This document shows, piece by piece, positions 19,660 to 59,433 of a stretch of DNA of 64,000 bases (position 1 is its first letter; each line of letters begins with the position of its first letter). Where the stretch lies: the IMG/VR virus record IMGVR_UViG_2531839524_000004; one strand, 5' to 3'. The stretch comes from a virus. Its lineage: Duplodnaviria; Heunggongvirae; Uroviricota; Caudoviricetes. The notes beneath the pieces are model-generated. The model was not told the origin of the DNA. It worked only from the letters and a program-made list of their open reading frames with translations, and made no database searches. The position numbers and the translations under genes were made by a program.

Positions 19660-19702
19660 CTAATACTAGAAAACAATTTGTTTAAAAAACAAAGGAAAGC
19701 AC

Positions 19703-21043
19703 ATGACCGAACTTTGCCATACAGGACGCGGGCTGTCCGAAGAGTTTGATGAAGATTTCCAGAACAGACTGACGGCATATTTTTGTCGTGATCACGAGTT
19801 TCTTACTCGTGCGGGAGATCTGGTTGTGCCTAGCCAATTTGCCAATGCGGCCAATGCCATATTGGTTAATATGGTTTCGGGCTATTACCGTATGTACAAG
19901 AGCGCGCCCTCTTCATCTGCAATTCTGGATATGCTTAAGCGTGCGAAACGCGATAAGACTATCCGTGAGGAACTATTCGCCGATGTTGTTGCTGCGTTTA
20001 AGCGCATTCTTGCAGAAAAATTGTCCGATACCTCGTACATGGTTGACCAGGTATCAACCTTCGCAAAAAGTGTAGCGTTTGATGATGCTCTGATTAAGGC
20101 TGCTGAACTGAAAGAGAAAGGCGACTTTCACGGGGCGATGGCAATCATGGCCAAGGTTCAGCAGATTGGATCGAACGAAGCGACCGGAATCTATGACTAC
20201 TACACCTCCGCAAGTGAGCGATTGAAAGCGCGTGAATATGAGGCTTCAGAGGAGTATGTACCAAACAGTATTACAACTGGACTCCCTCTTCTCGATAGGT
20301 TGCTGTACCAAAAAGGCTGGGCAAAGCGCGAAATGGTGCTCTTCATGGGGTTCGCTAAATCCGGTAAATCGACCGCAATGGGTGAGTTTTCCATAAACGC
20401 AACACTTGCTGGCTACAATGTTCTGTATCTCTCGCTGGAGGTTCACACCACCATTTTATCCGACCGTTTTGATGCAAGATTGTCGGAGACGGAAATGTCC
20501 AAGTTGGTGGAACGGCGCGATGAAGTTCATCGCAAGTTGGCAGAGTTGGGAGCTACGAAGGGTATTGGTAGTTTGTGGGTTGTTGAGCGTCCGTCAGGAA
20601 GTATGTCACCGGCAGATCTGGACCGTATGCTTAACAGCATGAAAGCCAACGGCATGGTGCCTGACATGGTTGTTGTCGACTACGCAGATTTGATGCGTGC
20701 CAGTTATGACCTTCGTGATGATCGCGCCAACATTCGTAGTATCTACACCGATTTACGTGCTCTTTATGACAAGCATAACGTTGCTGGGATCACGGCATCG
20801 CAGACAAACCGTGAAGGTGGCGCGTCAGAAGTTGCCACAATGATGCACGCTGCCGACAACATCGAAAAAGTACGTATTGCTGACCTGGTAATAACGATCA
20901 ACAAAACCGAAGAAGAAGAAGCGAAAGGAGAGGCTCGTCTCTACTTTGCTGGTTCACGTAACCAGCAGGGAGGGATCAGCATTCGCGTTAAACAAAACCT
21001 CGAACAAATGCGCTTCATTGAGCGAATCTTAGACGTTACCTAA
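19703..21043 (+). CDS. DnaB-like replicative helicase
   Basis: Walker A 'GFAKSGKST', Walker B-like 'VVVDYADLM', and 'SQTNREG' motif. Confidence 0.8.
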   Translation: MTELCHTGRGLSEEFDEDFQNRLTAYFCRDHEFLTRAGDLVVPSQFANAANAILVNMVSGYYRMYKSAPSSSAILDMLKRAKRDKTIREELFADVVAAFKRILAEKLSDTSYMVDQVSTFAKSVAFDDALIKAAELKEKGDFHGAMAIMAKVQQIGSNEATGIYDYYTSASERLKAREYEASEEYVPNSITTGLPLLDRLLYQKGWAKREMVLFMGFAKSGKSTAMGEFSINATLAGYNVLYLSLEVHTTILSDRFDARLSETEMSKLVERRDEVHRKLAELGATKGIGSLWVVERPSGSMSPADLDRMLNSMKANGMVPDMVVVDYADLMRASYDLRDDRANIRSIYTDLRALYDKHNVAGITASQTNREGGASEVATMMHAADNIEKVRIADLVITINKTEEEEAKGEARLYFAGSRNQQGGISIRVKQNLEQMRFIERILDVT

Positions 21044-21052
21044 AAAATAAGC

Positions 21053-22306
21053 GTGGAGAACACCTCCACGCTTGATTCATTGGTGAAACAACTTTTCTTT
21101 TGCCAAACCACAAAAGAAAAACACATGAGCCTTTATGTTATATCAACATTTAGGTTGGTCACAATATTGCCTGTTAAAAGTGGAATTATCGTGAGCGAGC
21201 TGAAAGAGCTAATTACCGAATTAGATTTTGAACAATGGTTGGATACTGAAGGTATCGTTTATCGACGTGGAGGCGTGAGTACTCGCGGTCGTGAAGTGAA
21301 TATCAAGGAGTGTCCGGTATGTGGCAGCTCCAACTGGAAGGTATATTTCAATCTGACCAGTGGCGTCGGTAAATGCTTCGCTGGTGATCATCCCGAAGAG
21401 ATTCAGTTCAATAAGCTGGTCTTCCTCAAGCACTACAGCGGCAAATCACGACGACAGTTCGAGGAATATGTGCAGAACGCCCTTCTTTCCCAGGGGTGGG
21501 CACCAAAGAAAGAAGAGCTAGTGCTTGCAAGCACAGTCGAGTTAGAGGGGCCAGTTGCACTCCCTCGTCATTACGAGCTTCCTATAGATGGTCGTCTTCC
21601 AGACTATCTGGTTGAACGAAACATATCGCCTGAAATGGCAAAGTATTTTGACCTACGATACTGCGTCGAAGGCAAGCACGCCTATGTAGATCCGTATACA
21701 GATCAGGTTAAAGGACAGATATTCGATATGCGAATACTGATACCGGTTTACGATCTGGATGGGGTAATGAAGACATTTCAGGGACGAGACATTACCGGTA
21801 CAGCAGAACGTCGCTACCTCTTTCCTATGCAGCTTCCAGCTTCAGGTAAGTTTCTCTACAACGGCCATAATGCAGTCGGCAAACAGACGGTAGTTGTCTG
21901 TGAGGGGGCGTTCGATGTTATGGGGGTCAAACGAGCTATTTTTGACGAAGAAACATTACGTGATTACGTGGAACCAATAGGAACGTTCGGGATGCATCTA
22001 TCTGGCAACACCACTCAGGATGCAGAAGATCAGCTGGGCGCGTTCCTGACGCTCAAGGCGCGTGGATTACGTAATGTGATCATGATGTGGGATAGTGAAA
22101 AGCAAGCTATACGCAACACTATGGCCGCAGCTAGGCGACTCACAAGTATTGGCCTTAATGTCAAAGTTGCGTGTTTGGGCGAGGAAGGACTCGACCCCGG
22201 CGATGCGACACCGGGGCAGATTATCAAAGCCTACTATTGCGCAAAACCTTATTCACGACAGCTTGAACTCTTAAGCAAGGTGAAAGGCATTGCAGCACTA
22301 GTTTGA
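21053..22306 (+). CDS. DNA primase (zinc-binding plus TOPRIM)
   Basis: 'CPVCGSSNWKVYFNLTSGVGKCFAGDH' zinc-ribbon-like element and 'VVVCEGAFDVMG' TOPRIM acidic motif; true start may be downstream of 21053. Confidence 0.7.
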   Translation: MENTSTLDSLVKQLFFCQTTKEKHMSLYVISTFRLVTILPVKSGIIVSELKELITELDFEQWLDTEGIVYRRGGVSTRGREVNIKECPVCGSSNWKVYFNLTSGVGKCFAGDHPEEIQFNKLVFLKHYSGKSRRQFEEYVQNALLSQGWAPKKEELVLASTVELEGPVALPRHYELPIDGRLPDYLVERNISPEMAKYFDLRYCVEGKHAYVDPYTDQVKGQIFDMRILIPVYDLDGVMKTFQGRDITGTAERRYLFPMQLPASGKFLYNGHNAVGKQTVVVCEGAFDVMGVKRAIFDEETLRDYVEPIGTFGMHLSGNTTQDAEDQLGAFLTLKARGLRNVIMMWDSEKQAIRNTMAAARRLTSIGLNVKVACLGEEGLDPGDATPGQIIKAYYCAKPYSRQLELLSKVKGIAALV

Positions 22307-26680: not shown

Positions 26681-26967
26681 GCAATTTAACTTCTTGGGAA
26701 TGGTGGTTGGCCACCTATTTCTTAGCGGCCGGAGTCGCATTCGCCTTTTACGTAGGTCAGTTAGTCGTAAAACTGTTGCTGATTAAATTTGCTAGTCATA
26801 AACGTATCGATGATGGTCTGTGGCGTCTTGGCACCCTGGTGGAAACTCGCTACGGGCAACTTAAGGAGAACGAAACCATTACTATCCAAGCGAAACGATT
26901 CACTGCCACCATTACAAGAACACCTAGTCGTAGAGTGGCCTTGATCAAAAAAGTCACAACCGAATAA
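26677..26967 (+). CDS. Small membrane protein
   Basis: 96 aa with N-terminal TM 'WWLATYFLAAGVAFAFYVGQLVV'. Confidence 0.45.
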   Translation: MSNLTSWEWWLATYFLAAGVAFAFYVGQLVVKLLLIKFASHKRIDDGLWRLGTLVETRYGQLKENETITIQAKRFTATITRTPSRRVALIKKVTTE

Positions 26968-27202
26968 AAACATATTGATAAGTATTTACTTACTTATCTT
27001 TTGTGTATAAGATGACTTTGTTTTCGTTGAGACGCGACTGTTTGAACTTAAATACAAGTGCAAACGAAGAAGTCTATCTGGCAGTAGCCTAATAAGCCAA
27101 ACACCAGCGAGGTCAGTTTCCAGCCTCGTTACCGAAATGGGACACACTGAGCGAGTGGGATTGCAGAACGCAGGAGGGAACATTCATGTTCCCTCCGATG
27201 AA

Positions 27203-27281
27203 GTAACAGAATGGGCGGTTGGTATATTTTCAACTCCATATGACTCCCGGATTCTTAGCCACTGACCGCCCATTCTGTTAC
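27203..27281 (+). ncRNA. Hairpin element A (17-bp perfect stem, 45-nt loop), member of a three-copy family
   Basis: 'GTAACAGAATGGGCGGT' pairs with 'ACCGCCCATTCTGTTAC'; loop contains 'TTTTCAACTC' and 'GACTCC' shared with element C. Confidence 0.45.
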
Positions 27282-27356
27282 GTCATTTTGTTCAATTATG
27301 TCGTTTATACTGGGTTAAAAAGCGGCGACGTAGCCCGGCTGGTATGGTTAGCCAGC

Positions 27357-27745: not shown

Positions 27746-27820
27746 GATGGTGTAGCTCAGCGGTAGAGCAGTTGGCTGTTAACCAACTGGTCGGTGGTTC
27801 GAATCCACCCACCATCGCCA
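27746..27820 (+). tRNA. tRNA-Asn (anticodon GTT)
   Basis: Acceptor stem GATGGTG/CACCATC, anticodon loop CTGTTAA, T-loop GGTTCGAATCC, 3' CCA encoded. Confidence 0.8.
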
Positions 27821-27825
27821 ATTTA

Positions 27826-27912
27826 GGGGAGTTAGTCCGTAGAGGTAGCGGTGTAGACTGTAAATCTACTGTCATGGCGACTCGGGTGGTTCGACTCCAT
27901 CACTCCCCACCA
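27826..27912 (+). tRNA. tRNA-Tyr (anticodon GTA), long variable arm
   Basis: Acceptor GGGGAGT/ACTCCCC, anticodon loop CTGTAAA, T-loop GGTTCGACTCC, encoded CCA; 87 nt. Confidence 0.7.
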
Positions 27913-27916
27913 AATT

Positions 27917-27992
27917 GCCGGTTTAGCTCAGTTGGTAGAGCGCCTGCCTTGTAAGCAGGATGTCAGCGGTTCGAGTCCGTTAACCGGCACCA
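27917..27992 (+). tRNA. tRNA-Thr (anticodon TGT)
   Basis: Acceptor GCCGGTT/AACCGGC, D-arm TAGCTCAGTTGGTAGAGC, anticodon loop CTTGTAA, T-loop GGTTCGAGTCC, encoded CCA. Confidence 0.8.
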
Positions 27993-28209
27993 ACACAACA
28001 GGAAAGAGCATTGAAACCCGCCGAGACTGCCCTGTTTTAAGCGTAAGTCCGTGCAAACGTCATACAGTGCTCTTTTCGTTGTGGTTGATGCGCAGACTGA
28101 TGCGCGGAAAGAAATGCCCCAGCGACACACGAGGCGAGTTCACACACTGCAATGCAGTCAGTAGCCGGGGTCGCTAAGCCGGAGATCAGTACCGGTAACC
28201 ACAACAATT

Positions 28210-28296
28210 GGAGAGTAGGGAGCATGGTGCTCAAGCGGTCTTGAAAACCGTCCCATTGTGCAAACGATGATGGTTCGATTCCATTACTCTCCGCCA
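28210..28296 (+). tRNA. tRNA-Ser (anticodon TGA), long variable arm (tentative)
   Basis: Acceptor GGAGAGT/ACTCTCC, anticodon loop CTTGAAA, T-loop GGTTCGATTCC, encoded CCA; D-arm is unusual. Confidence 0.55.
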
Positions 28297-28297
28297 G

Positions 28298-28376
28298 ACA
28301 CAGCGTTGAGCGGTTTGGCCTTTTAATCAACTCGATTAAGACTCCGCTAACATAAACCAGACCGCTCAACGCTGTG
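28298..28376 (+). ncRNA. Hairpin element C (16-bp perfect stem, 46-nt loop) abutting the 3' end of tRNA-Ser
   Basis: 'CACAGCGTTGAGCGGT' pairs with 'ACCGCTCAACGCTGTG'; loop contains 'TTTTAATCAACTC' and 'GACTCC'. Confidence 0.45.
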
Positions 28377-28450
28377 ATAGATAATTACGGCAGACGTTCT
28401 TAACCATAGCTTGCTAACATCCTAGCAACACTTTTTTCAGCGCAAAATTC

Positions 28451-28473
28451 AAAGGGGCTTCGGCCCCTTTTTT
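28451..28473. terminator. Bidirectional rho-independent terminator
   Basis: 'AAAGGGGC-TTCG-GCCCCTTTTTT' with an A-tract on the other side; between the tRNA cluster and the convergent minus-strand gene. Confidence 0.65.
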
Positions 28474-28488
28474 GTTGAACAGTGCAAT

Positions 28489-29751
28489 TTACTTTGCATA
28501 GTCGCCCAATTTTAATATTTCGCGCTTATATTCATTAACCATGCTACTGGATTCAGTATAAATTCGATTTAAAAGATTATCGTTATCTTTATTTTCATTT
28601 ATCTTAATTAGTGCTAATTTATATTCATAGTCATCAAATGCCACAATTAAATGGTGGCCTGGGATTATATCTTCGTCACTCTTAAAGTATATATCTTCAA
28701 GTATGTAATCTAGTTGATTAGATTTTCTTTTCTCGATGTAATCTTCAGCCATAGCTATTACATCATTCCTGTCATTTAACCTGTTTTTTTCGGAAGGCAC
28801 ATCTTCGTAATGTTGCACGATTGAACAACCAATAAGGCGTGGGATGTAAACGTCAAAATGAGTAACTCTATCATTCGCGGTTTTAAGTAGTTCCTCAAAG
28901 TAGTTTCTTACATGTAAAGGCAACTTCTCAAAGTAATCATTAATTATAGGAGAACAAGGAGTTTTATAATTCATAAGAACCGACGGTACGAGCTTTGGGT
29001 GTCGAAACATCCAGTCCCTTTTAACGTCCGATGGAACATAATAACTTTTAATGATATTATCAAAATAATTTATCATTCGAGATTTGAATATTTTGTTGAA
29101 TCTAAGGTTTATGAATGTATCCAGATAAGGCATATTTGAATAAGCATCATCAAAAAATATTTCATCATTGAAAAAATCATATTTATTCAATAAACAACAC
29201 AGTTTTTCCGAATTAATATGTTCACAATAATCGATTTTTAATCCAAAGATAGCAATGATCAACTTCATCTGAGGTGGGATTTTAAAAATTAATTGTGACA
29301 CATACGCTCTTTTTTCCTTGAGACATTCCCCATCAATATAAAATGAACCATCCACATACTCAAATATATTAATAATATGCTTCACATACTGTATTACCTC
29401 ATGCTGTCTTACCAATGGATAATATAGTCTATGTAACTCATCGCTGTTTAAATTAATTTTGTGTTTATCGATAATTTGTTTTGCAAGAAGACATAACTCA
29501 TCATGTTGATTTAATAAGGAATCAAACCATTGTTTAAATGCACTCTTTCGCATTTCGAACAATGATTCAGTTGTTAATTGAAGGGCTGAAAAAGCTGCTT
29601 TTGCACTTTTTCTCGCTTCGTAGGCATTCCATGCTGTTGCTATAAAAGCAAATGCTGTAGCCAATGTTCCAACAGTTTGACCATTTAAAACAACCCAATC
29701 CCAAAAAATGACGGTGAGCAGTAGTATAATAATGAAAATTAAAAAAGGCAT
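28489..29751 (-). CDS. Membrane-anchored hypothetical protein encoded in an AT-rich island
   Basis: 420 aa; two N-terminal TM segments then a large soluble domain with no motif I recognise; locus is visibly much more AT-rich than surrounding phage genes. Confidence 0.6.
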   Translation of the reverse strand: MPFLIFIIILLLTVIFWDWVVLNGQTVGTLATAFAFIATAWNAYEARKSAKAAFSALQLTTESLFEMRKSAFKQWFDSLLNQHDELCLLAKQIIDKHKINLNSDELHRLYYPLVRQHEVIQYVKHIINIFEYVDGSFYIDGECLKEKRAYVSQLIFKIPPQMKLIIAIFGLKIDYCEHINSEKLCCLLNKYDFFNDEIFFDDAYSNMPYLDTFINLRFNKIFKSRMINYFDNIIKSYYVPSDVKRDWMFRHPKLVPSVLMNYKTPCSPIINDYFEKLPLHVRNYFEELLKTANDRVTHFDVYIPRLIGCSIVQHYEDVPSEKNRLNDRNDVIAMAEDYIEKRKSNQLDYILEDIYFKSDEDIIPGHHLIVAFDDYEYKLALIKINENKDNDNLLNRIYTESSSMVNEYKREILKLGDYAK

Positions 29752-29925
29752 GTATGTATTTCACTCTACTAACTATAAAATATTAGGCTAATGTTAACCA
29801 AACAATGCCTTAATTAATAGATTGATCGAGGCTTTAATAGCTTTATAATGCAGACTGTAAAGATAAGTATGCACATACCTATCTTCTTTGTAAGTAAAGT
29901 TGCATATCAATTCTATGAGGTAACA

Positions 29926-30171
29926 ATGACGATCACTATCTACGGACGAGATAACTGCTCATACTGCAAACGTGCGGTCGAGCTGGCGAAGCAACTAAAG
30001 GGACATGGCTACGGTGATTATGAGTACATCGACATCACCACTGCCGGTATCGACAAGGAAAAACTAAGTGAAATTGTTGGTAAACCGGTAGAGACTATCC
30101 CCCAAGTGCTGATCGATGGCCAACCGATTGGCGGATACACAGAACTGGCTGCATACGTCAGCACCCTCTGA
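29926..30171 (+). CDS. Glutaredoxin / NrdH-like redoxin
   Basis: 'MTITIYGRDNCSYCKRAVELA' carries the CxxC active-site motif at the expected position; about 80 aa from the internal ATG of the 29848 ORF. Confidence 0.7.
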   Translation: MTITIYGRDNCSYCKRAVELAKQLKGHGYGDYEYIDITTAGIDKEKLSEIVGKPVETIPQVLIDGQPIGGYTELAAYVSTL

Positions 30172-30381: not shown

Positions 30382-31485
30382 ATGAAAAATAGCTTTGACA
30401 GAGCACGCGCTGCGGAGAACACCTCAAAAGAGGCGATTGAGTATCTCGAAAGAGCATCTCAAATGCAGGCCGTTATGATCTCGCAGGTTAGCAATGATAT
30501 GAGATTCTCGGACGCATTCATGTTATTTACTCGCTTATCTCTGCTGATAACAAGACGTCGGCCGGAGATCGCTGTTCATTGTATTTTGATACATGTTTTG
30601 CCGCACATTGCTGATGTAAAAGTAAGTGACATTAATAGGTTCATGGTGAACCAACTGGTCAACCCCCTAATACTGGATGGCAAAATTGTTATGGGCCGCC
30701 GCGTTTTCTCTCTGATGAAGCAGTTCCTTAGCTGGTGTGCCTTCCAGGGGATGATCGACGTGTCACCGTTAAACGATATGTCACTAAACAAAGTTGCCGG
30801 TGGCGCAAAGCCCACGCCTCGCGAGCGGAAGCTAACCGACGCAGAGGTATGGGTGTTCTGGAATATATGGGACTACTTCAATGTGTGCGCTGGTACAAAA
30901 TGGGCGGCCAGGCTATGTCTTGTATCCGCAAGACGACCTGACGAAGTACTGCGGGCTAAAAAAAGTGAGTTCAACCTCCAGCGTGGGGTTTGGAATCAAG
31001 GCAAGAGAAACAAATCAGCCCGTGAGCATTCTCTGCCTTTAAGCACATTAATGCGCACATGCATTGAAGAGTTATTCGAATATGGTAAAGGCAGCCAGTG
31101 GCTTGTGCCTTCGAATAAAAAAATCGGGAAAGATCTTCCGATGTCTAAAGTGGCAATAGCCCAGGCATTACGCCGTATCCTGGAACGACCAGAACTGATG
31201 GAGCTTGAGCCATTTACACCACGAGATTTGCGTCGTACTGCGCGTAGTTACTTCCCAGCATTAGGCATAAGCCAGGAGGTATCACGTAAAATCATGAACC
31301 ACAGTCTTGAGGGGATAGATCGGGTCTACGACCGGCACGATTATATGGACGAGATGCGAGACGCCTTAGAAAGTTTCTCGACGTACATCGCATCAATCGT
31401 AGAGCAACCGGATTTAGACGAAATTGACCACAAATTCAAGGGAGATCGTCTATCGACAGAGCTTATTCGTGTAAATTTTTCATAG
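30382..31485 (+). CDS. Tyrosine recombinase / integrase-family protein
   Basis: C-terminal 'TPRDLRRTARSYF...IMNHSLEGIDRVYDRHDY' resembles the HxxR...H...Y catalytic region of tyrosine recombinases, with Arg where the first His is usual; 'SARRPDEVL' is a box I-like Arg. Confidence 0.65.
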   Translation: MKNSFDRARAAENTSKEAIEYLERASQMQAVMISQVSNDMRFSDAFMLFTRLSLLITRRRPEIAVHCILIHVLPHIADVKVSDINRFMVNQLVNPLILDGKIVMGRRVFSLMKQFLSWCAFQGMIDVSPLNDMSLNKVAGGAKPTPRERKLTDAEVWVFWNIWDYFNVCAGTKWAARLCLVSARRPDEVLRAKKSEFNLQRGVWNQGKRNKSAREHSLPLSTLMRTCIEELFEYGKGSQWLVPSNKKIGKDLPMSKVAIAQALRRILERPELMELEPFTPRDLRRTARSYFPALGISQEVSRKIMNHSLEGIDRVYDRHDYMDEMRDALESFSTYIASIVEQPDLDEIDHKFKGDRLSTELIRVNFS

Positions 31486-31866
31486 AGACTTTATGGCCTC
31501 AACAACCTTTTGTGATGCGCCTTTCTCTTTACCGAATCGCTCGTTATATGCAGCAAGAACCTGTTTTTCGTCCTCGTTAAGAGGAGCAGTGCCTTCTTTG
31601 TATAAAAATGCTGCGAGTTCGGGTTGGCGTTCTTCCAGCACCATCATCATAAGACGACTTGGCTCAATACCCAGTGCCAGCGCCAGCGGACGAACCTTAT
31701 CGATAGGCAAAGGAATTTTGCCGCTTTTAATTAAAGAAAGGTTGTTGGCGTTTTTATACCCAATTGTTTTGGCTATCTGGGCCTGGCTCATAGGTGAGGA
31801 TTCAATCAACCCTGCGATAAAAGCAGCGTAGCGACTTTCTATAAATTCAATCTTGTTGTCAGACAT
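31480..31866 (-). CDS. XRE-family helix-turn-helix transcriptional regulator
   Basis: 'SQAQIAKTIGYKNANNLSLIKSGK' HTH-like segment; 128 aa; convergent with the recombinase and divergent from the vWA/AAA+ operon across a 560-bp AT-rich region. Confidence 0.6.
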   Translation of the reverse strand: MSDNKIEFIESRYAAFIAGLIESSPMSQAQIAKTIGYKNANNLSLIKSGKIPLPIDKVRPLALALGIEPSRLMMMVLEERQPELAAFLYKEGTAPLNEDEKQVLAAYNERFGKEKGASQKVVEAIKSL

Positions 31867-32331: not shown

Positions 32332-32429
32332 TCCCTCTTCTACCTGCGCGAATGGCTTAGTTCCCTGTTCGCGCAGTGCTACATTAAACACACTAGTAAA
32401 TAATTTGTTTTCATAACAAAGGATTAGCC

Positions 32430-34538: not shown

Positions 34539-34633
34539 TTAAAACAGCCTTAATGATAAGTAACTACTTATCATAGTTAATGGTATATTTATATAAGAAA
34601 TTAAACGCTCATTAGAGAACAAAGGAAAAGCGC

Positions 34634-35869
34634 ATGACTACGACTGCACTGCAAAATGATAAAAATCCTTCTGATTACCTTGTTTGCAAGTGGTGCGGCA
34701 AATCATTTCATTATTTTAAGTCCCATGTAGCCAATGGTAATTGCGAGGGCATTCCTGAGTCAGTAAAAGATGCCGATCCTGACACTGTACTGAAAATGTA
34801 CACAACGCAGTTTCCAGACGAGCCGACGCTATCAAAAAAGGCACTTGATGCAATTCAAGCCAAACGTGCCGAGCAAAAAAGCGAAATAGCCAAATCTTCT
34901 GGCGTAACCAGTAACCCAGGCTACACAGGCACAGTTGAGTACAAGACAGATCTGGTCGCAGCTCACGAACTGCTAGGTGTAACGGTGAAAGAACTCGGGA
35001 CAAAACGTGGGGCGCCGCTCATGGTTAGCGTCAACGTCAATACGCCGTTTCCAGAGTTCGTTCCAGAAGTGAAGCAGGGCTACGTATATGGCGACTTTGA
35101 ACTGATCAAAGACATTTTCATGATGCTTGAACTTGGCATACCAGGCTATTTGTGGGGTCATGCGGGAACAGGCAAATCATCATTACCTACACAGCTATGT
35201 GCTTTGCTCAATCGTCCGTTAATCCGTGCCCAACATACAGCATCAATGGAAGAGGCTCATGTTACTGGTCAAATTCTGGCGCGTGATGGCTCTACGTATT
35301 TCGAACCTGGCTTACTTGCGCTTGCCATGAAGCATGGCTGGGTTTACCTCGCGGATGAATACGACTTTGCGTTTCCACAAATTCTTGGCGTGTACCAGCC
35401 AGTGCTGGAAGGTGAGGCGTTGGTTATCAAAGAGGCGACTCCAGAATGGCGTCGCATTACTCCGCATGAACGATTTGCTTTCATTGGTACTGGCAACACA
35501 AACGGTTCTGGTGATGAAACCGGCTTGTACCAGGGTACAAATATCCAGAACGCCGCAAACTTTTCGCGTTTTGGCATCGTTTCGAACGTGAAATACATGA
35601 GCAAAGAGGCAGAGATCAACATGTTGATAAATGCCGGCATCGTGGATGAATACGCTGAGAAGATGGTTAAGTTTGCCGGTATCGTTCGCGATGGATACGA
35701 AGAACACAATATCAGCCAACCAATTGGGCCTCGTGAGCTTTTGTTGTCGGCCAAGATTGGAATGATGCGAGGCGACTTTGTGACAGGCATTGAGCGTTCT
35801 TTCATTAACAAACTCCCTTCAGCTTCTGCGCAAGCGGCTCGTGAAATTGTTCAGAAAATATTTGGTTAA
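34634..35869 (+). CDS. AAA+ ATPase (MoxR / CobS-like)
   Basis: Walker A 'GHAGTGKSS' and Walker B 'VYLADEYDFAFPQ'; immediately downstream of the vWA protein gene. Confidence 0.75.
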   Translation: MTTTALQNDKNPSDYLVCKWCGKSFHYFKSHVANGNCEGIPESVKDADPDTVLKMYTTQFPDEPTLSKKALDAIQAKRAEQKSEIAKSSGVTSNPGYTGTVEYKTDLVAAHELLGVTVKELGTKRGAPLMVSVNVNTPFPEFVPEVKQGYVYGDFELIKDIFMMLELGIPGYLWGHAGTGKSSLPTQLCALLNRPLIRAQHTASMEEAHVTGQILARDGSTYFEPGLLALAMKHGWVYLADEYDFAFPQILGVYQPVLEGEALVIKEATPEWRRITPHERFAFIGTGNTNGSGDETGLYQGTNIQNAANFSRFGIVSNVKYMSKEAEINMLINAGIVDEYAEKMVKFAGIVRDGYEEHNISQPIGPRELLLSAKIGMMRGDFVTGIERSFINKLPSASAQAAREIVQKIFG

Positions 35870-35871: not shown

Positions 35872-36075
35872 GTGCGTAAAGGATGTTTCGGCTCTCTTAT
35901 CGCTGCTTCTGAAACTGGTAAGGCTTGTCTGGTATGTCCAGACAAGCCCGATTGTCACCAATCAGCAAAAGAAGTTGCGATTTCGATGTATGGGAAGTTC
36001 GTAGGCTTCCCCAATGACAAAATCAAAAAAACCAGAAAGGTAAAAACACATGAAGGCTCTAATGGTTCGAACTGA
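35872..36075 (+). CDS. Small Cys-rich protein (putative zinc ribbon)
   Basis: 'CFGS...CLVCPDKPDC'; 67 aa; overlaps the polymerase start. Confidence 0.35.
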   Translation: MRKGCFGSLIAASETGKACLVCPDKPDCHQSAKEVAISMYGKFVGFPNDKIKKTRKVKTHEGSNGSN

Positions 36076-41181: not shown

Positions 41182-41298
41182 TTTTTGATAGATAATAAGT
41201 AAGTACTGATCTATCATTTAGCAGCTCGAAAGAGTCACGAATGAACGAAAGCCCAACGCGCATAGCGCCATCGGCCAAATCACAACAAGGAGAAACAC

Positions 41299-42327
41299 AT
41301 GTCTAAGACATTACTTGATTTGCTTAACAAAACTCGTGAAGACATTGCCGCCAAACGTGGTAACAACGTTGATCTGACTCGCTTAAAAGACGGCGTCAAC
41401 TATATCCGCATCTTCCCGAATAAAGACGACCCAAACGGTAAGTTCTTCCAGACTTTCGGTATGCACTACGTTAAGTATCAGAACGAGGAAGGTAAAGAAG
41501 CAACCAACGCTTATATTTGTGAGCAACATACTCACGGTCGCGCTTGTCAGCTATGCGAAATGGTGATGGAAGGTCGCGCTCGTCACAAGGGTAACAAAGC
41601 AATGGAAGAACGCATCGGTCAAATGCGTGCCACTCCTCGCTACCTGGTCAACGGCATTCTTTCTGCTCGTGAGGATTTCGCAGATGCTGAGAAATGCCAG
41701 TTAATCGAGCTGCCGTCTACTGTATTCGATGATATCTGCAAAGCAATCACCGAAGACATCGCTGATGATATCGGCAATCCACTGAGCAAAGAGGAAGGCT
41801 ACGCATTCCTGATTAAACGTACTGGCTCTGGTCGCGATACCAAATATGACGTCTCGCCTAAGCGTAAAGTCTACAAAGGCGATATCGAAGATAAATTCTG
41901 GAACACCCAGCATGATCTGATCGCATACGCAAATCAGGCTGATGAAACTCGTCTTCTGTCGACAGTTCGCACTATGGGTCGTCTGATTGGCATCGCTGCA
42001 CCAACTGCCGCAGCATCTGCACCAGCAATTTCCTCAACCGCGAAAACATCGGCTGCGGCACTACCTGGATTTGGCTCTGTCACTGGTCATACAGAAGGAG
42101 CGACGGCTGTAGCTACCGCTCATACCCCAGCTTCTGAACCAACCAGTCTGGTTGATGAAGAAATCCTCCGTGCCGTTGAAACTGAATTTAAACCAGAAGC
42201 AAGTTCCGCTGCCGTTGCCGTATCAGTCAAAGAGTCTGAAGCAGTCGCAGCGACATCTGTAGCAGCCGCATCTGCGACGGAAGATGAAGGTCTGGATGAC
42301 CTACTGAGAGAGCTGGACTCTCTGTAA
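41299..42327 (+). CDS. Single-stranded DNA-binding protein (T4 gp32-like, putative)
   Basis: His/Cys cluster 'HTHGRACQLCE' resembling a gp32-type zinc site; Ala-rich linker; acidic C-terminal tail 'EDEGLDDLLRELDSL'. Confidence 0.5.
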   Translation: MSKTLLDLLNKTREDIAAKRGNNVDLTRLKDGVNYIRIFPNKDDPNGKFFQTFGMHYVKYQNEEGKEATNAYICEQHTHGRACQLCEMVMEGRARHKGNKAMEERIGQMRATPRYLVNGILSAREDFADAEKCQLIELPSTVFDDICKAITEDIADDIGNPLSKEEGYAFLIKRTGSGRDTKYDVSPKRKVYKGDIEDKFWNTQHDLIAYANQADETRLLSTVRTMGRLIGIAAPTAAASAPAISSTAKTSAAALPGFGSVTGHTEGATAVATAHTPASEPTSLVDEEILRAVETEFKPEASSAAVAVSVKESEAVAATSVAAASATEDEGLDDLLRELDSL

Positions 42328-44674: not shown

Positions 44675-44766
44675 ACACAAGGCGTCCACAGGACGCCTTT
44701 TTTATCTCTTGAAAATATATAAGTACTTACTTATTATTTTCGCATAACAACCACATAGGAAAACAC

Positions 44767-44967
44767 ATGATCAAAATCTATCTATTGGCAGTAGCCACAG
44801 GCCTTTCAGTGGCTCTCATCTACGGTTTACTGGTTCCGTCGCTGATTTCTACCAAGAGTGATTTAGCCGTCATGTTTGGAGTTATCGTTGGTTTTGGTGC
44901 TCCTGTAATCGGTCTTATTGCTGGTCGTAAGTTTATCAACTCATTAATCAAAGCAAAGGGGAAATAA
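44767..44967 (+). CDS. Small two-TM membrane protein
   Basis: 66 aa, two hydrophobic segments; immediately upstream of the SPFH gene. Confidence 0.45.
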   Translation: MIKIYLLAVATGLSVALIYGLLVPSLISTKSDLAVMFGVIVGFGAPVIGLIAGRKFINSLIKAKGK

Positions 44968-45801: not shown

Positions 45802-45896
45802 CTCTCATTAAGAAGATCAGGCGTCCAGTTGGACGCCGTTTTATTCTCGTTATTATCACACACAAGAAAACAATTTGTTAAAAGGTTAAGTTAATT

Positions 45897-48406: not shown

Positions 48407-48461
48407 TCGCCTATTCATAACTAACAAAATAAGTAAACACTAACCACAAAAGGAAAAACAC

Positions 48462-48737
48462 ATGAGAGTTTTAGTTCGAATCGTTACCAGCACTGTCTAT
48501 GACGTGTTTCCGCTTTTTATGGTCAAAGTCGATGGCCTTAACGATGAAGAAACTGACGCGCTGATCCAGCGTATTCTCGTTGAATATACAGGTCATGACG
48601 CTGATTCAGTGATGGTTGATGATGATGGTGTTTGTTGGCATAACGGCAACTGTTGGTACGTAGAAGAGACTCAACAAATCAGTGATGAAGATGCCGCACA
48701 TCTTGAGCGTATTTTAAGCATCAGCACTTTTGAGTGA
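48462..48737 (+). CDS. Hypothetical protein
   Basis: 91-aa acidic ORF preceded by the AAAGGAAAAACACATG initiation context. Confidence 0.4.
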   Translation: MRVLVRIVTSTVYDVFPLFMVKVDGLNDEETDALIQRILVEYTGHDADSVMVDDDGVCWHNGNCWYVEETQQISDEDAAHLERILSISTFE

Positions 48738-52140: not shown

Positions 52141-52394
52141 CCCTCCAGATCGTATATTGGCGTAGATAGAATCTACGCCTCCTCAAAATAGCTCTCATAG
52201 CGTTCTACAGTGATTCTGTCTTATTTTTAGTCATATAGACAAGCAAACTTGCGCCACAATAAATAGGTATATACTTACTTATAAATTTTGTATATTAAGG
52301 CGCTCGTTTCATTCCTAACATACCGTTATGCATAGTTGTTTACCTCATCATTGCTCTTAGAATTTGTATCAAAATAACCACAAAGGAAAAATAC

Positions 52395-53480
52395 ATGACT
52401 TTGCCATACGGCGTCATTTCTGACTGCCACTACCACAAATGGGATGCGTTCTCCACGACGAACGCTGAGGGGCTTAACTCCAGACTTGAAATACAGTTGG
52501 AAGCAACGAAAGAAGCAGCCATCGCCATGAAGAAGGCCGGTTGTAAGTACATGTTGGTTGCCGGTGATACATTTCACGTCCGAGGAACTGTGTCCCCTTC
52601 TGTTTTGCATTACGTAACTGAAACGTACAAGTGGATTATCAACGAGCTTGATCTGATAGTAGTAATGCTGGCCGGTAATCACGATCTTGAAACCAACGAT
52701 TCAGTATATAGCGCCAACGCAGCAGCATCGCTGAGTTCTATCGGCGTGGTAATCGTATGTGGCAAGCGCCCACACTCAATAAAAATTGGTGATGTGACTG
52801 TCCACCTGATTAGCTGGCGTAACAATCATGCGGAGCTTATCAGCGATCTGAAAGCATTACGTAAGAGCGTAGAAGGTGATAATCATGACGTTGTTATCCA
52901 TACATCCATTAACAAAGCCATTCCAACAATGCCTGACGTCGGTATCGATGCGCAGGAGTTAAAGGATATCGGCTTTCGTCTCGTGCTTAGTGGGCATTAC
53001 CACAACCACAAAGAGGTCATTCCTGGAGTTATCAGTGTCGGTGCGCTGACCCATCAAAATTGGGGAGATGTTGGATCTCTGGCTGGTTACATGATCGTAA
53101 ACCCGGACGGCAGTTTCAGTCACTACGAAACCAGTGCGCCTAAATTCATTAACCTGGAAGATTATGTTGCCGATGACCAAATTCGCGGCAACTACGTGCG
53201 TTTCCGCGCCGTAATCGAGAACGATGAAGAAGGCATTAAGTACCAGAACATCCTTAAAACAATGGGTGCAAAAGGTGTTGTGTGCAACTTCATCCGTAAG
53301 TCATCAATGATGGAAGGGACAGCAAGCACAACGGAAACCAGCAAAATCGATAGCCTGGGAGAGTCGGTATCTGCTTATTGCAAGATTGTCCACGATACTG
53401 ACGGCGGATTTGATCTGAGCAAGTTGGATATTTTGTGTCAGGAAATCCTCACCGAAGCGGAGAGTTCGGAGGCTGTGTGA
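52395..53480 (+). CDS. sbcD: SbcD/Mre11-family nuclease
   Basis: Calcineurin-like phosphoesterase motifs 'VAGDTFH', 'LAGNHDLE', 'LSGHYHNH'. Confidence 0.8.
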   Translation: MTLPYGVISDCHYHKWDAFSTTNAEGLNSRLEIQLEATKEAAIAMKKAGCKYMLVAGDTFHVRGTVSPSVLHYVTETYKWIINELDLIVVMLAGNHDLETNDSVYSANAAASLSSIGVVIVCGKRPHSIKIGDVTVHLISWRNNHAELISDLKALRKSVEGDNHDVVIHTSINKAIPTMPDVGIDAQELKDIGFRLVLSGHYHNHKEVIPGVISVGALTHQNWGDVGSLAGYMIVNPDGSFSHYETSAPKFINLEDYVADDQIRGNYVRFRAVIENDEEGIKYQNILKTMGAKGVVCNFIRKSSMMEGTASTTETSKIDSLGESVSAYCKIVHDTDGGFDLSKLDILCQEILTEAESSEAV

Positions 53481-55626: not shown

Positions 55627-56359
55627 ATTAAGCCGCTCGCAGTTTTTGCAGGTATTTGCAGTGATGCAGTCGATAAAACTGATCAATGGGCATACTTCCA
55701 ATGGTGCGGCTCCACGTATTCTGTGGGGCAGCAACAATATTGACGGAGTACAATTCGCCGCGTTGCTTGGTCTAATATCCGAGACGCCATTGATGCAAAG
55801 TTTGAAATCACTACCACCTGGATGTATTGCGCCGATCCTGATTAATCCTTTTGTTGAGGGGGGATATCTTCCCAACGTCGGGCCTGGGTTTATTGCATCC
55901 CATGAAACTGAAGATCTTAACATTAATAGCGAAGGGTTCTTTGGGGGAATGGGTGCGCATCACTGTATGGCTTTCACGAACCTTATTCGACTTGCCAATA
56001 AGCGGGTGGATAGTTTGGCATCGCCAGGTGATGCTTTTACTGGTTTCCTTATCCAAAGGAGGGATAAAAAGTACAGTGCGGACAAACTACAGTTTGTTGG
56101 TAAGTATGGAGAAATGGTAGAAATCGAACTTCAGCTCCCTCATGTTTTAGCAAACGATAGTGCAGACAGTCGGAGGCTGTTGGGCATCATGCGTCATTTC
56201 ATAGCAAGTGGTGTTAAACATGCCGCAGATAAACGTGTCACGCAGGAAAATGAGTATTCAGACTTTGCAAACTATCCCCAACCAACGTTGCAAACGGCAA
56301 TAGTAGCCAATTCGTTGGAGGCGAGATTATTGGAAAACCCTATATGGGGAACATGGTAA
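55616..56359 (+). CDS. Hypothetical protein
   Basis: 247-aa ORF between sbcC and the RuvC-like gene. Confidence 0.5.
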   Translation: MSFKLSRSQFLQVFAVMQSIKLINGHTSNGAAPRILWGSNNIDGVQFAALLGLISETPLMQSLKSLPPGCIAPILINPFVEGGYLPNVGPGFIASHETEDLNINSEGFFGGMGAHHCMAFTNLIRLANKRVDSLASPGDAFTGFLIQRRDKKYSADKLQFVGKYGEMVEIELQLPHVLANDSADSRRLLGIMRHFIASGVKHAADKRVTQENEYSDFANYPQPTLQTAIVANSLEARLLENPIWGTW

Positions 56360-56368
56360 GGAGACTAT

Positions 56369-56938
56369 ATGAGTAAAAAAATCAGCGTAGTTGGTGTTGA
56401 TCCCTCAATGAGCAACTTTGGGCTTGCTGTGGGCACTTTAGACCTTGAGACGGACGAACTTGAGATTCACGGCCTTACTCTTGTTGAGACTAAAGCGGGG
56501 AGTAACAAAAAGACCGTTCGTGTGAACAGTGACGATCTGCGCCGAGCCAGTGAAATATGGCGTGTTGCGAAGCCAATCATTGATAAGGCAAATATGGTTT
56601 TTTGTGAGCTACCGGTTGGGAGCCAAAACTCTCGTTCGCAGACGTCTTACGGTATTTGTATCGGTGTACTTGCGTGTGTGGATAAGCCATTGATCCAGGT
56701 TACTCCAAACGAAATCAAGCATTTTGTCGGCAATAAACTTACTACATCGAAAGAAGAGATTATCCAGTGGGCTACGAAAAAACACCCTAAAGCACCGTGG
56801 CTGCGTCGTAAGCAATCTGGACAGGATGTTCTCGTGAACAAAAACGAACATTTGGCTGATGCGGTGGCTGCCATCCATACCGGTATGCAAACAGATCAGT
56901 TCCGCCAGGTGCGCGATGTTCTTAAGTCTCTCATTTGA
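56369..56938 (+). CDS. RuvC-like Holliday junction resolvase (putative)
   Basis: N-terminal 'ISVVGVDPSMSNFGLAV' matches the first RuvC catalytic Asp motif. Confidence 0.6.
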   Translation: MSKKISVVGVDPSMSNFGLAVGTLDLETDELEIHGLTLVETKAGSNKKTVRVNSDDLRRASEIWRVAKPIIDKANMVFCELPVGSQNSRSQTSYGICIGVLACVDKPLIQVTPNEIKHFVGNKLTTSKEEIIQWATKKHPKAPWLRRKQSGQDVLVNKNEHLADAVAAIHTGMQTDQFRQVRDVLKSLI

Positions 56939-57011
56939 TTTCATTGATAGGTAAGTGCTTATCTATTAACATGGGCCACTATATTTAGTGGCCCTCTTTA
57001 TTTGGTGATAC

Positions 57012-59327
57012 ATGATAAGCATCGTAAAACGTAACGGCCAAACAGAGCCGTTATCCGAAGAAAAATACAACCGCGTCGTAATGTATGGCGTAGAAGGCAT
57101 TCGTGGTGTAAGCGCATCCGCTGTAGCAATGGGAGCTGCGGCCAGCATTTTTGATGGGATGACCACCAGCCAGTTGCATGAGGCTTTGGTTAAATCTGCC
57201 GCTGATTTGATCTCACCAGAAGCACCAAATTACTCACAGGTGGCTGCCCGCCTGAACATTTTTAAAATCCGCAAAGATGCCTTCGGTCGTTACGACTATC
57301 CGAACTTCTACCAACACATTGTCAAGAACGTTAACAAGGGCGTTTATGACAAGGATTTGCTGACACATTATTCGTTTGAAGAGATCGAAGAACTCGGCAA
57401 TTACATTAAGCCGAAACGTGACGATCTTTTTGGCTATGCAGCTACGGTGCAGTTGCAAAGCAAATACCTCGTTCAAAACCGTGTTACTGGTGAGATTCAT
57501 GAGGGGCCGCAACATATCTATATGCTGGTAGGCATGTGTCTGTTCCAGAATTGGGAAGACGACTGCGCTGGCAAAACACGTATGGAGATGGTCAAAGGTT
57601 TCTATGACGTTACAAGTACGTTCAAACTGTCTCTGCCCACACCAATCATGGCCGGCGTCCGTACTCCAACCCGTCAGTTCTCCAGTTGTGTGCTGATTGA
57701 GTCTGGCGATAGTCTGAAAGGGATTAGTGCAGCTTCAGCCGCAATTATCGACTACGTTTCACGTCGTGCTGGAATTGGTATTGGTTTTGGCCGTATCCGT
57801 GCGCTGGGCAGCGAGATCCGCAATGGTGAAGCCACCCATACCGGAGTTATTCCATTCCTGAAGCATTTCCAGACGGCTGTTAAATCTTGTTCGCAAGGTG
57901 GTGTTCGTGGTGGCGCAGCAACAGCGTTTTACCCGATCTGGCATCTTGAAGTTGAAAGTCTGCTGGTGGTGAAAAATAACCGTGGTATTGATGAAAACCG
58001 CGTTCGCCATCTTGATTACGGCGTCATGAGTAACCGTCTAATGTACCGTCGACTCGTCAGAAGCGAGAACATCACTCTGTTCAGCCCGCATGATGTGCCT
58101 GATATGTACGAAGCCTTCTTCACAGACCAGGAGCTGTTTGAAAAGCTGTACCATAAATACGAAGCCGATGATTCAATTCGCAAGAAGTCAGTACCTGCCA
58201 TTGAGCTGTTCTCATCTCTGATGCAGGAACGAGCGTCCACGGGCCGAATTTATATTGCGAACGTCGATCATATTAATGAGCATGGCGCTTTCATTCCTGC
58301 TCTTGCACCTGTCCGCCAGTCAAACCTGTGCATGGAGATCACTCTACCCACTCGTCCACTGGCATTTACCGACGACCCGAACGGTGAGATCGCGCTATGC
58401 ACTTTATCCGCTTTTAACCTCGGAGCCATCCGTTCACTGGAGTCTCTTAAAGAGGTGGCGTTCTATGCCGTTGCTGCACTGGATTCGTTACTGGATTATC
58501 AAGACTATCCGATGGAGGCAGCCGAAGTGCCTGCCAAAGCTCGTCGTAGCTTGGGAATTGGTGTAACCAACTTTGCTTATTACCTGGCAAAGAATGGCGT
58601 TCGTTATTCTGATACCGCTGGCAATAAACTGGTGCATGAAACGTTCGAAGCTATCCAGTATTACCTTCTTGATGCCAGCTGCCGACTTGCTGAAGCAAAA
58701 GGTGAGTGTGACTGGTTTGAGCAGACCAAATACGCAATTGGTCAGTTGCCGATCGACCATTACCGTTCTTCATTAGACGAAAGTGGCGAAACCAACTTTG
58801 AGTTAAAGATGCCGTGGGAAGAACTGCGTGAACGTATTGCAAAATACGGCCTTCGCAACTCCACACTGACGGCACAAATGCCATGCGAGACTTCCAGCCA
58901 GATCACTAATTCCACCAACGGCATCGAACCGCCTCGTGGCCCGGTGTCAGTGAAATCTTCTAAGGACGGCATCGTCAAGATGGTCGTGCCTGAGTTTGAA
59001 AAACTGAAGGAACAGTATGAATACCTGTGGGATATGCCGGACAACCGCGGCTATCTGACAAAGGTGGCGATCATCCAGAAGTTCTTTGACCAGGCTATTT
59101 CGGCCAATACCAACTATGACCCTTCTCGCTTTGAAGGCGATAAAGTCCCAATGATGACGCTACTGTCAGATTTGCTTCTCGCCTACAAGATGGGAGTTAA
59201 AACGCTTTACTACCACAACACCAGAGATGGTGCAGGAAAGCGTGATGACGACGAACCGCAGAATCCACTGGCGCAAGCTGTAGCCGTCGAGCCAGAAGAT
59301 GAGTGCGACGGAGCCTGCAAAATCTGA
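57012..59327 (+). CDS. nrdA: Ribonucleoside-diphosphate reductase alpha subunit (class Ia)
   Basis: 771 aa; N-terminal ATP-cone-like 'MISIVKRNGQTEPLSEEK'; 'SNLCMEI' active-site region; C-terminal Cys pair 'CDGAC'. Confidence 0.9.
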   Translation: MISIVKRNGQTEPLSEEKYNRVVMYGVEGIRGVSASAVAMGAAASIFDGMTTSQLHEALVKSAADLISPEAPNYSQVAARLNIFKIRKDAFGRYDYPNFYQHIVKNVNKGVYDKDLLTHYSFEEIEELGNYIKPKRDDLFGYAATVQLQSKYLVQNRVTGEIHEGPQHIYMLVGMCLFQNWEDDCAGKTRMEMVKGFYDVTSTFKLSLPTPIMAGVRTPTRQFSSCVLIESGDSLKGISAASAAIIDYVSRRAGIGIGFGRIRALGSEIRNGEATHTGVIPFLKHFQTAVKSCSQGGVRGGAATAFYPIWHLEVESLLVVKNNRGIDENRVRHLDYGVMSNRLMYRRLVRSENITLFSPHDVPDMYEAFFTDQELFEKLYHKYEADDSIRKKSVPAIELFSSLMQERASTGRIYIANVDHINEHGAFIPALAPVRQSNLCMEITLPTRPLAFTDDPNGEIALCTLSAFNLGAIRSLESLKEVAFYAVAALDSLLDYQDYPMEAAEVPAKARRSLGIGVTNFAYYLAKNGVRYSDTAGNKLVHETFEAIQYYLLDASCRLAEAKGECDWFEQTKYAIGQLPIDHYRSSLDESGETNFELKMPWEELRERIAKYGLRNSTLTAQMPCETSSQITNSTNGIEPPRGPVSVKSSKDGIVKMVVPEFEKLKEQYEYLWDMPDNRGYLTKVAIIQKFFDQAISANTNYDPSRFEGDKVPMMTLLSDLLLAYKMGVKTLYYHNTRDGAGKRDDDEPQNPLAQAVAVEPEDECDGACKI

Positions 59328-59433
59328 CATATGGTGGGGGATATCCCCACCTTCTCTTTGATTTGTAAGCCTTGTTTAAACACATAAGATAACAACTTGT
59401 TTAAACGCACCAAAAAAGAAAAAGGAAAAACAC

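Follow-up and report, generated by a model that had tools for sequence, protein, structure and literature searches.

The DNA analysed here, termed the window, is a stretch of 64,000 nucleotides from the IMG/VR virus record IMGVR_UViG_2531839524_000004 (Caudoviricetes), and the element under study is a recurrent palindrome of the AAACAA type, AGAAAACAA-N-TTGTTT, termed class-2 to set it apart from the other palindrome class of the same DNA, the TAAGTA palindrome. A 5-kb probe around the helicase gene displayed 96–98% identity to the Escherichia phages PhiR41_1, Cyrano and CMS-2020a and 80% identity to Salmonella phage SSU5, and the window was therefore assigned as part of an SSU5-like phage-plasmid. 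The + strand carries nearly all of its genes, and the helicase gene was present in 930 plasmid records. SSU5-like phage-plasmids are very common in clinical Enterobacteriaceae and frequently bear resistance genes (PMC9600943). The class-2 palindrome was observed in front of five window genes, namely parA, the DnaB-like helicase gene, the CobT-like gene, ORF 45897 and nrdB, and it is best read, at a rough probability of 0.6, as the operator of a dimeric repressor encoded by the phage-plasmid itself, with about 18 sites forming one regulon. The sites and the genes behind them are as follows.

16737..16755, + strand: predicted class-2 operator 5' of parA, AGAAAACAA-G-TTGTTTCAG, 30.4 bits; perfect 13-bp dyad at 16740–16752, centre 16746, ATG 42 nt on
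16788..17456, + strand: parA, small Walker-type partition ATPase, 222 aa (Pfam MipZ, AAA_31, CbiA and ParA from residue 2)
19668..19686, + strand: predicted class-2 operator 5' of the DnaB-like helicase gene, centre 19677, 26 nt to the ATG, 28.2 bits
19703–21043: DnaB-like helicase gene
32395..32413, + strand: predicted degenerate class-2 operator 5' of the CobT-like gene, AGTAAATAA-T-TTGTTTTCA, 18–21 bits; dyad centre 32404, ATG 26 nt on
32430–34538: CobT-like protein gene
45865..45883, + strand: predicted class-2 operator 5' of ORF 45897, centre 45874, 23 nt to the ATG, 26.6 bits
45897–46721: DUF1281_C protein gene (ORF 45897)
59371..59381, + strand: second copy of the right-arm string CTTGTTTAAAC, a possible extra half-site 25 nt 5' of the nrdB operator, conserved in SSU5
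59387..59405, + strand: predicted class-2 operator 5' of nrdB, centre 59396, 38 nt to the ATG, 28.4 bits
59434–60576: NrdB gene

The strings quoted in the initial annotation were all recovered within 0–5 nt of where it had placed them, the palindrome strings within one base: GAAAACAATTTGTTTAAAAAAC starts at 19669 and not at 19668, GAAAACAATTTGTTAAAAGG starts at 45866, CTTGTTTAAACAC starts at 59371, and GATAACAACTTGTTTAAACGC occupies 59388–59408. Two further copies had been overlooked, the perfect dyad AAACAAGTTGTTT (16740–16752) 5' of parA and the degenerate copy AAATAATTTGTTT (32398–32410) 5' of the CobT-like gene. The core AACAAYTTGTT has 4 exact matches in the window against 0.10 expected, a count reached in none of 100 shuffles. 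A weight matrix trained only on sites from outside the window (Cyrano beyond the window span, SSU5 and a Klebsiella oxytoca plasmid) picked exactly these five sites at 18–30 bits, the next real match scoring 9.5 and the best score on 30 shuffled windows being 19.3. All five fall within the 3.4% of the window made up of non-coding positions no more than 60 nt 5' of a start codon (P ~4.5e-8), with the dyad centre 23–42 nt from the start codon in each case; the motif is thus not common in coding sequence, a distribution that the initial annotation had named as one that would speak against its claim. The string CTTGTTTAAAC was also considered as a direct-repeat motif of its own and was dropped, as its 3 matches (≤1 mismatch) against 1.64 expected are within chance.

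The palindrome was also found at orthologous promoters in diverged relatives. The replication regions compared were those of SSU5, one Enterobacter plasmid and three Klebsiella plasmids (two of them with a helicase protein only 68–70% identical), with the whole Cyrano genome, a 50-kb replication region of an Acinetobacter relative and Yersinia pestis pMT1 as further material; among the lineages named below, L003 is K. pneumoniae, L004 and L005 are Klebsiella, L136 is a more distant lineage of 51% GC, and L133 and L134 are distant relatives. The motif occupies the orthologous promoters in SSU5, in Enterobacter and in the three Klebsiella lineages. In six diverged regions upstream of parA, where the flanks cannot be aligned, the sole long invariant block is CA.ATAAGAAAACA..TTGTTT, and upstream of the helicase gene in six relatives the invariant blocks are AGAAAACAAnTTGTTTAA, the Shine–Dalgarno and start region, and a -35-like TTGA.C. 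Orthologous sites of the CobT-like gene in SSU5 and pMT1 fit the consensus; the equivalent intergenic slot behind the terminator at ORF 45897 is occupied in SSU5, L003 and pMT1; and the nrdB site is held by three lineages, including SSU5 and L003 (with two copies in the latter), and is absent from L004 and L005, a gain and loss that would be the turnover expected of transcription-factor sites. In L136 the dyad again lies 25–26 nt before the parA and helicase starts.

About 18 good class-2 sites were observed genome-wide in Cyrano, preceding parA, the helicase gene, cobT, CYRAN_58, nrdB, CYRAN_85, 87, 101, 105, 106, 108, 110 and 111, with a tandem pair (centres 63 and 88) before the small terminase gene terS. 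At Cyrano 40–135 a GC-rich hairpin and its T-run (AGAGCGCATGGACGCGCTCT GTGTGTTTT) lie between these tandem sites and terS, and pMT1 is arranged alike; the late operon may combine a class-2 operator with a leader terminator. The consensus from 30 sites is aaTTa.aCAc.a.AGAAAACAA-N-TTGTTTaa with a free central base, the full form being AGAAAACAA-N-TTGTTT(TCT) over 13–19 bp and the minimal conserved core AAACA-N3-TGTTT. In the Acinetobacter relative the multi-site regulon is absent from the fetched 50-kb replication region, which holds one AAACAAAATGTTT dyad, placed exactly in the parA-like upstream region; the dyad is tied to a par operon in five of the seven lineages. A scan of viral contigs with a 16-mer returned multi-copy matches in contigs of about 90–112 kb, which would suit SSU5-like elements in size, and scattered single matches, and indicated no other known phage family.

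The position of the palindrome relative to predicted promoters and terminators was then read from the following features.

16638..16657, + strand: intrinsic terminator before the parA promoter/operator
19640..19645, + strand: -35-like hexamer TTGATC of the predicted helicase promoter (TTGAGC in L004 and L005), in invariant columns
45820..45837, + strand: intrinsic terminator directly before the ORF 45897 promoter/operator
45829..45856, + strand: predicted sigma-70-type promoter TTGGAC-16-TATTAT of ORF 45897, the -10 ending 18 nt before the dyad centre; below the strict scan
59333..59351, + strand: intrinsic terminator between nrdA and the nrdB promoter/operator

An intrinsic terminator precedes three of the five window sites, and transcription must therefore restart within the 30–80 bp that bear the motif. 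Under a relaxed -10 rule that fixes A2 and T6 and asks for four or more of the six consensus bases, 18 of 29 sites have a -10-like hexamer that ends 17–21 nt 5' of the dyad centre, the background at other offsets being about 0.3 sites each. Many of these hexamers have TTGACG, TTGGAC or TTGACC 15–17 nt further 5'; the ORF 45897 arrangement recurs likewise in SSU5 and L003. The helicase promoters differ, in that the -10 ends only 10–12 nt from the dyad centre; their -35-like hexamer lies in the intergenic spacer behind the preceding gene, 16–17 nt before -10 hexamers of the CATAAT/ATACTA type. The dyad centre would then fall at about +5 to +15 of the predicted transcript, with a variable promoter distance such as would be expected of an operator module. 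About 7 nt separate the end of the helicase dyad from the Shine–Dalgarno sequence, and this dyad is therefore no upstream activator site for a downstream promoter.

Several observations bear on whether the element acts as DNA or as RNA. Departures from the consensus in the arms are uncompensated (AATAA/TTGTT, AACAA/TTATT and AACAT/TTGTT), and a few copies run opposite to the genes that flank them. When the leaders of the five sites were folded as RNA, the arms were never paired in the minimum-free-energy fold, with z values of -1.4 to +1.45 against shuffles, and the covariance models of Rfam 15 gave no match at the sites, their only matches in the window being three tRNAs. An RNA hairpin or riboswitch-like element was accordingly rejected, the arms being unpaired, the folds no better than shuffles and Rfam silent. 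Because of the free centre, the uncompensated arms, the inverted copies and the absence of arm pairing, the palindrome carries the signature of a site that would be recognised on double-stranded DNA by a dimeric protein.

The only relevant expression data found were the RNA-seq values of the uninduced LF82/Cyrano lysogen (PMC9928086, S1 table). The first genes behind 13 of 14 class-2 sites are at 5.7–25.5 normalised counts, with a median of about 7.5, near a prophage background of about 9.5 as implied by the fold figures of the same study (CYRAN_45 at 95.75 equalling 10-fold). The exception is the parA operon, with CYRAN_28–30 at 50, 89 and 55. In macrophages at 6 h the small gene 5' of cobT stands at log2 10.8 and cobT at 5.9, and there is therefore no read-through into the class-2 unit. 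These data show that the class-2 promoters are off in the plasmid state. Immediately 5' of the cobT promoter/operator lies the inverted repeat CTGCGCGAA-N15-TTCGCGCAG (32344–32376), across which the same macrophage values amount to a fall of about 30-fold in Cyrano; SSU5 has CTGTACGAACAG-N9-CTGTTCGTACAG at the corresponding place, a compensated CG-to-TA change in both arms. This repeat probably serves as a terminator that lacks a U-tract, or as a further protein site.

We infer from the recurrence, placement, conservation and lysogen silence of the palindrome that it is most likely the operator of a phage-plasmid repressor. The operators would sit at or just 3' of the transcription starts of sigma-70-type promoters that restart transcription after intergenic terminators, and a dimer (or dimer of dimers) made by the phage-plasmid would bind the dyad and keep these promoters low during plasmid-prophage life. 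Besides parA, the regulon would take in genes of lytic replication and of nucleotide metabolism, the operon for packaging and a block of small genes. The binder that we tentatively prefer, by inference and at odds well short of even, is the protein encoded directly behind parA.

17456..17815, + strand: 119-aa protein, candidate centromere/operator-binding, translationally coupled to parA; the parA stop codon overlaps its ATG at 17456

This protein has a basic, predicted-disordered tail (residues 1–45), the segment KSRTMSLEDE, a helix, a loop, the segment FTRSDVIRAAI and a second helix, a layout that is that of the ribbon-helix-helix partners of type Ib ParA proteins, the fold being putative. 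KSRTMS(L/I)EDE and TRSDVIRAA are invariant between operator-sharing groups that are about 53% identical overall, and two family members match Pfam RHH_1 just below threshold over the KSRTMS–TRSDVIRAA segment (E 0.005 and 0.11). The family counts 18 representatives among 1.8 billion proteins, its members lie directly 3' of a small ParA in every context recovered, and the protein is expressed in the Cyrano lysogen. As in type Ib systems, the ParA is small (222 aa) and has no N-terminal DNA-binding domain, and the small partner gene is immediately 3' and co-transcribed. Autoregulation through a site 5' of parA is the norm for type Ib par operons. The parA site would then be an autoregulatory and centromere-like site, and the other sites dispersed copies that silence phage promoters. 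That the 119-aa protein is both a type Ib centromere-binding partner and the global silencer, through the roughly 18 dispersed dyads, of lytic replication (helicase, CobT/DnaE block, nrdB), packaging (terS) and the small genes is possible, yet we hold it to be doubtful; if true, plasmid segregation and lysogeny maintenance would be mechanically coupled through one protein. The helix-turn-helix (HTH) prophage repressor encoded at 31480–31866, the likely immunity repressor, is listed among the other candidate binders; its own promoter region carries a TAAGTA-type palindrome instead.

Further features were observed around the par operon. A perfect inverted repeat with 12-bp arms, ATGCATTGGCGC-N7-GCGCCAATGCAT (17821–17851), separates the operon from a convergent GIY-YIG-like gene (17868–18635, minus strand) and is probably a bidirectional terminator; where the window has the GIY-YIG-like gene, Cyrano has another gene (CYRAN_30, + strand). 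In L134, positions 10364–10467 just 3' of the parA-partner gene hold several GTTCGTT/AACGAAC copies, direct and inverted, which are centromere-like and have no counterpart in the window.

A number of results weigh against the repressor and against its proposed identity. A strict sigma-70 consensus scan of the five sites returned no + strand promoter, and the predicted geometry, with the operator at +5 to +15, is built on weak hexamer matches. The lysogen silence equally fits an activator-dependent promoter, and the parA operon has the best operator yet is the expressed unit. The distant 119-aa homologues of L133 and L134 have no such dyad 5' of parA, one distant relative showing two direct AAAACAA copies there, and the window itself has one dyad (two half-sites) 5' of parA and no repeat array, arrays being usual for type Ib systems. 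Finally, pMT1 has lost parA and the 119-aa gene and keeps four class-2 sites; as a natural knockout it is presumably too recent or too close an offshoot to show decay.

Among the other explanations, the one given most weight, which we still consider unlikely, is positive control, in which a phage activator, a sigma appropriator or an antiterminator-loading factor recognises the dyad together with its conserved AG and CAC flank and turns the promoters on in lytic growth, a Q-like engagement of paused RNA polymerase being possible. It would account for genes that are silent in the lysogen, for -35 elements that are weak or absent, and for the asymmetry of the motif, whose AG at -9/-8 is mostly gene-distal; a terminator hairpin follows the tandem sites in the Cyrano terS leader, and in 8 of 29 sites a T at the centre makes the dyad contain a -10-like hexamer, AACAAT. 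However, the central base is free, so that this pause-inducing hexamer is unconserved, the helicase dyad about 7 nt before the Shine–Dalgarno sequence cannot be upstream of a core promoter, the distance from dyad to -10 varies by about 9 nt, no terminator lies between site and gene except at terS, and no Q-like or sigma-like gene was identified. Control at the RNA level is improbable: here short leaders would begin with the motif, and it would be bound by a translational repressor acting on RNA, for which a FljA-family protein is the candidate. FljA proteins act post-transcriptionally (PMC2652032), the chromosomal homologue blocking translation of fliC mRNA. The motif does lie 19–42 nt 5' of start codons, inside the predicted leader, with its orientation mostly fixed relative to the gene, and CYRAN_114 has a Pfam Flag1_repress match of 1e-80 and a weak Hfq-like one towards its C terminus; homologues of the family occur in 831 plasmids, including those of non-flagellate Klebsiella and Y. 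pestis pMT1, and none was reported from Acinetobacter, whose fetched 50-kb region is without the multi-site regulon. Against this, the dyad symmetry, free centre and uncompensated arms point to a dimer on double-stranded DNA, the arms form no hairpin, several sites have the opposite orientation to the transcribed strand, no motif lies beside the fljA-like gene, and that gene, which the window does not include, could simply be a moron directed at the flagellin of the host. The gene itself, at 26781–27302 of Cyrano (L009) on the minus strand, is a core gene of enterobacterial SSU5-like plasmids, and its protein probably has an element-internal function.

Still less credence is given to a DNA-binding protein of the enterobacterial host recruited to many promoters. 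The motif is constant across the Escherichia, Salmonella, Klebsiella and Enterobacter elements while the second palindrome class diverges, and the multi-site regulon is absent from the fetched Acinetobacter region, both of which a host protein would explain; a related dyad nevertheless stands 5' of parA in the Acinetobacter element, and the link to the par operon in five of seven lineages points to a plasmid-encoded partner. To our knowledge no E. coli regulator has an AAACAA-N-TTGTTT consensus, the closest, IHF (WATCAANNNNTTR), failing at two key positions, and we know of no fit among IHF, RcsB, PhoP, MntR, Zur and the GntR-type regulators. Equally remote is a reading without any transcriptional role, in which the palindromes are pure partition sites (dispersed ParA centromeres) or recombination-promoting repeats at module boundaries. 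The best and most widely conserved copy is indeed at parA, dispersed centromeres exist in the plasmid prophage N15, and the promoter/leader cassettes at 95–98 kb of Cyrano look paralogous; but every strong copy lies between a -10-like hexamer and a Shine–Dalgarno sequence, a placement needless for a centromere or recombination site, and the flanks are wholly different between lineages where the dyad is kept, for which simple duplication is insufficient.

The initial annotation had proposed that the palindrome marks a promoter or operator class distinct from the TAAGTA palindrome, and this holds: class-2 is a genuine, conserved, promoter-linked cis-regulatory class of other sequence and other position. 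The TAAGTA type sits in the spacer between -35 and -10, as in TTGATA-17-TAACAT 5' of nrdA, and class-2 just 3' of the predicted -10. In L136 the TAAGTA-type palindrome has a different sequence while the class-2 dyad is unchanged, which fits two different binding proteins. An ATAAG flank at some class-2 sites was considered as a link between the classes and rejected, only AG being conserved there. The further proposal, that the class belongs to replication and early genes, did not survive, since the set includes parA (plasmid maintenance), the terS tandem pair and, in Cyrano, many small ORFs. Obligate partners are moreover divided, nrdA and cobS going with TAAGTA and nrdB and cobT with class-2, and this split argues against separate temporal programmes, the RNA-seq found being that of the uninduced lysogen only. 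The two palindrome types alternate inside single functional modules, which corrects the working picture of temporal classes.

Two TAAGTA-type loci of the window were observed beside these. At 56944–57011 the palindrome fills the 17-bp spacer of a good sigma-70-like nrdA promoter (TTGATA-ggtaagtgcttatctat-TAACAT), and the nrdA leader has a terminator-like hairpin (GGGCCACT-atattt-AGTGGCCC with a T-run) between promoter and start, which suggests attenuation or antitermination. At 18746–18802 lies a 57-bp near-perfect palindrome with 28-nt arms that are 89% complementary and a TAAGTA-type core (CCTGCTTCTGTATATATAAATAATAAGT/ACTTATTAAATATATATACGGAAGCAGG); a near-identical copy lies across the two ends of the linear Cyrano record, a little 5' of the tandem class-2 sites and terS, and the palindrome may be a recombinase/resolution site or a packaging-related site.

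A translation-initiation context shared by many replication and early genes had also been taken as part of the same class. Its occurrences are as follows.

19691..19705, + strand: AAAGGAAAGCACATG, helicase
21112..21127, + strand: AAAAGAAAAACACATG, primase, marking 21125 as the likely true start
34621..34636, + strand: AAAGGAAAAGCGCATG, CobS-like AAA ATPase
36037..36052, + strand: AAGGTAAAAACACATG, DnaE
41286..41301, + strand: CAAGGAGAAACACATG, gp32-like SSB
44755..44769, + strand: ATAGGAAAACACATG, small membrane protein
48449..48464, + strand: AAAGGAAAAACACATG, 91-aa ORF
52382..52397, + strand: AAAGGAAAAATACATG, SbcD-like protein
59421..59436, + strand: AAAGGAAAAACACATG, nrdB

At up to 3 mismatches AAAGGAAAAACACATG has 7 matches in the window against 1.2 expected, a number reached in none of 100 shuffles, and all seven are at start codons, six at ORF starts and one at the internal ATG 21125 of the GTG ORF 21053; the contexts at 19691 and about 44755 are variants one base shorter. 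With shorter variants counted, (ACC)ACAAAGGAAAAACAC-ATG is common to 9–10 of 69 genes, those of the helicase, primase, CobS-like protein, DnaE, gp32-like SSB, SbcD-like protein and NrdB and two small ORFs. Because the context stands at ATG 21125 and the length annotated in PhiR41_1 agrees, this ATG, and not the GTG 21053 of the longest ORF, is the likely true start of the primase. The recurrence at starts is thus beyond chance, but the context is no mark of the promoter class, as it is shared by no more than two or three of the five genes behind palindromes. It comprises an AAGGA core 7–8 nt before the ATG (in the 9–10 genes), an A/C-rich spacer and an unstructured leader, is kept at orthologous starts in distant relatives, and is read as the ordinary strong Shine–Dalgarno region of highly translated replication genes and not as a second regulatory signal.

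Elsewhere in the window, three tRNA genes are clustered at 27746–27989 (Rfam tRNA, 75.5, 41.6 and 74.9 bits), as in Cyrano (Asn, Thr and Ser). A low-GC island (36% against about 46%) spans 28000–30000 and is probably acquired cargo; its 420-aa minus-strand ORF (28489–29751) has no Pfam match, and the region differs among the window, PhiR41_1 and Cyrano.

The literature searched held no account of either palindrome class or of SSU5-type gene regulation, one possibly relevant preprint aside. The roughly 18 mapped operators name promoters to test, predict start positions and shorten the list of regulator candidates.

By analogy, the class-2 palindrome appears as a further case of a familiar type, the dispersed operators of a plasmid-prophage regulator. 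In phage-plasmid P1, the C1 repressor binds a short operator at many promoters, overlapping or just 3' of the core promoter, and during plasmid lysogeny silences lytic functions, including the gene of a DnaB-type helicase. The likeness lies in one sequence that recurs at many promoters of a phage-plasmid, here at or just 3' of predicted core elements, with target genes silent in the lysogen; however, the P1 operator is an asymmetric 17-mer (ATTGCTCTAATAAATTT) and the present one a dyad, there is no sequence similarity, so that the relation is one of analogy and not of membership, and the likely immunity repressor here (31480–31866) goes with the TAAGTA palindrome in its own promoter region. 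The omega repressor of pSM19035 and ParG of TP228 are ribbon-helix-helix partners of type Ib ParA ATPases; omega recognises sub-sites of about 7 bp, in direct or inverted order, in more than one promoter and so exerts global control of partition, copy number and other functions. With omega and ParG the par cassette shares a small ParA and, behind it, a small protein whose N-terminal tail is flexible and basic, as well as a site 5' of the par operon, and, reminiscent of omega, the 6-nt arms (AAACAA/TTGTTT) have a centre-to-centre spacing of about 7 bp; it differs in having one dyad per promoter and not 7–10 heptads, in its phage lytic targets and in a fold that is putative. KorB and KorA of the IncP plasmid RK2 have 12–13 bp palindromic operators at about 7–12 promoters including that of the partition operon, KorB being both a partition protein and a global repressor. 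The recurrence of a palindromic operator at promoters that include a partition operon is alike, whereas KorB, a large HTH protein of the ParB family, is capable of action at a distance, and the sequences (TTTAGCSGCTAAA, GTTTAGCTAAAC) are unrelated. With lac O1 the resemblance is of position only, the dyad lying about 5–15 bp 3' of the predicted start, where a bound protein would block initiation or escape. In the linear plasmid prophage N15, palindromic sopC-like sites are scattered in or near phage promoters, and the partition protein can influence phage expression. The SSU5-like element is likewise a phage-plasmid with dispersed palindromes near phage promoters, and differs in that N15 has a type Ia SopAB system with four sites, against about 18 predicted sites and a type Ib-like cassette here.

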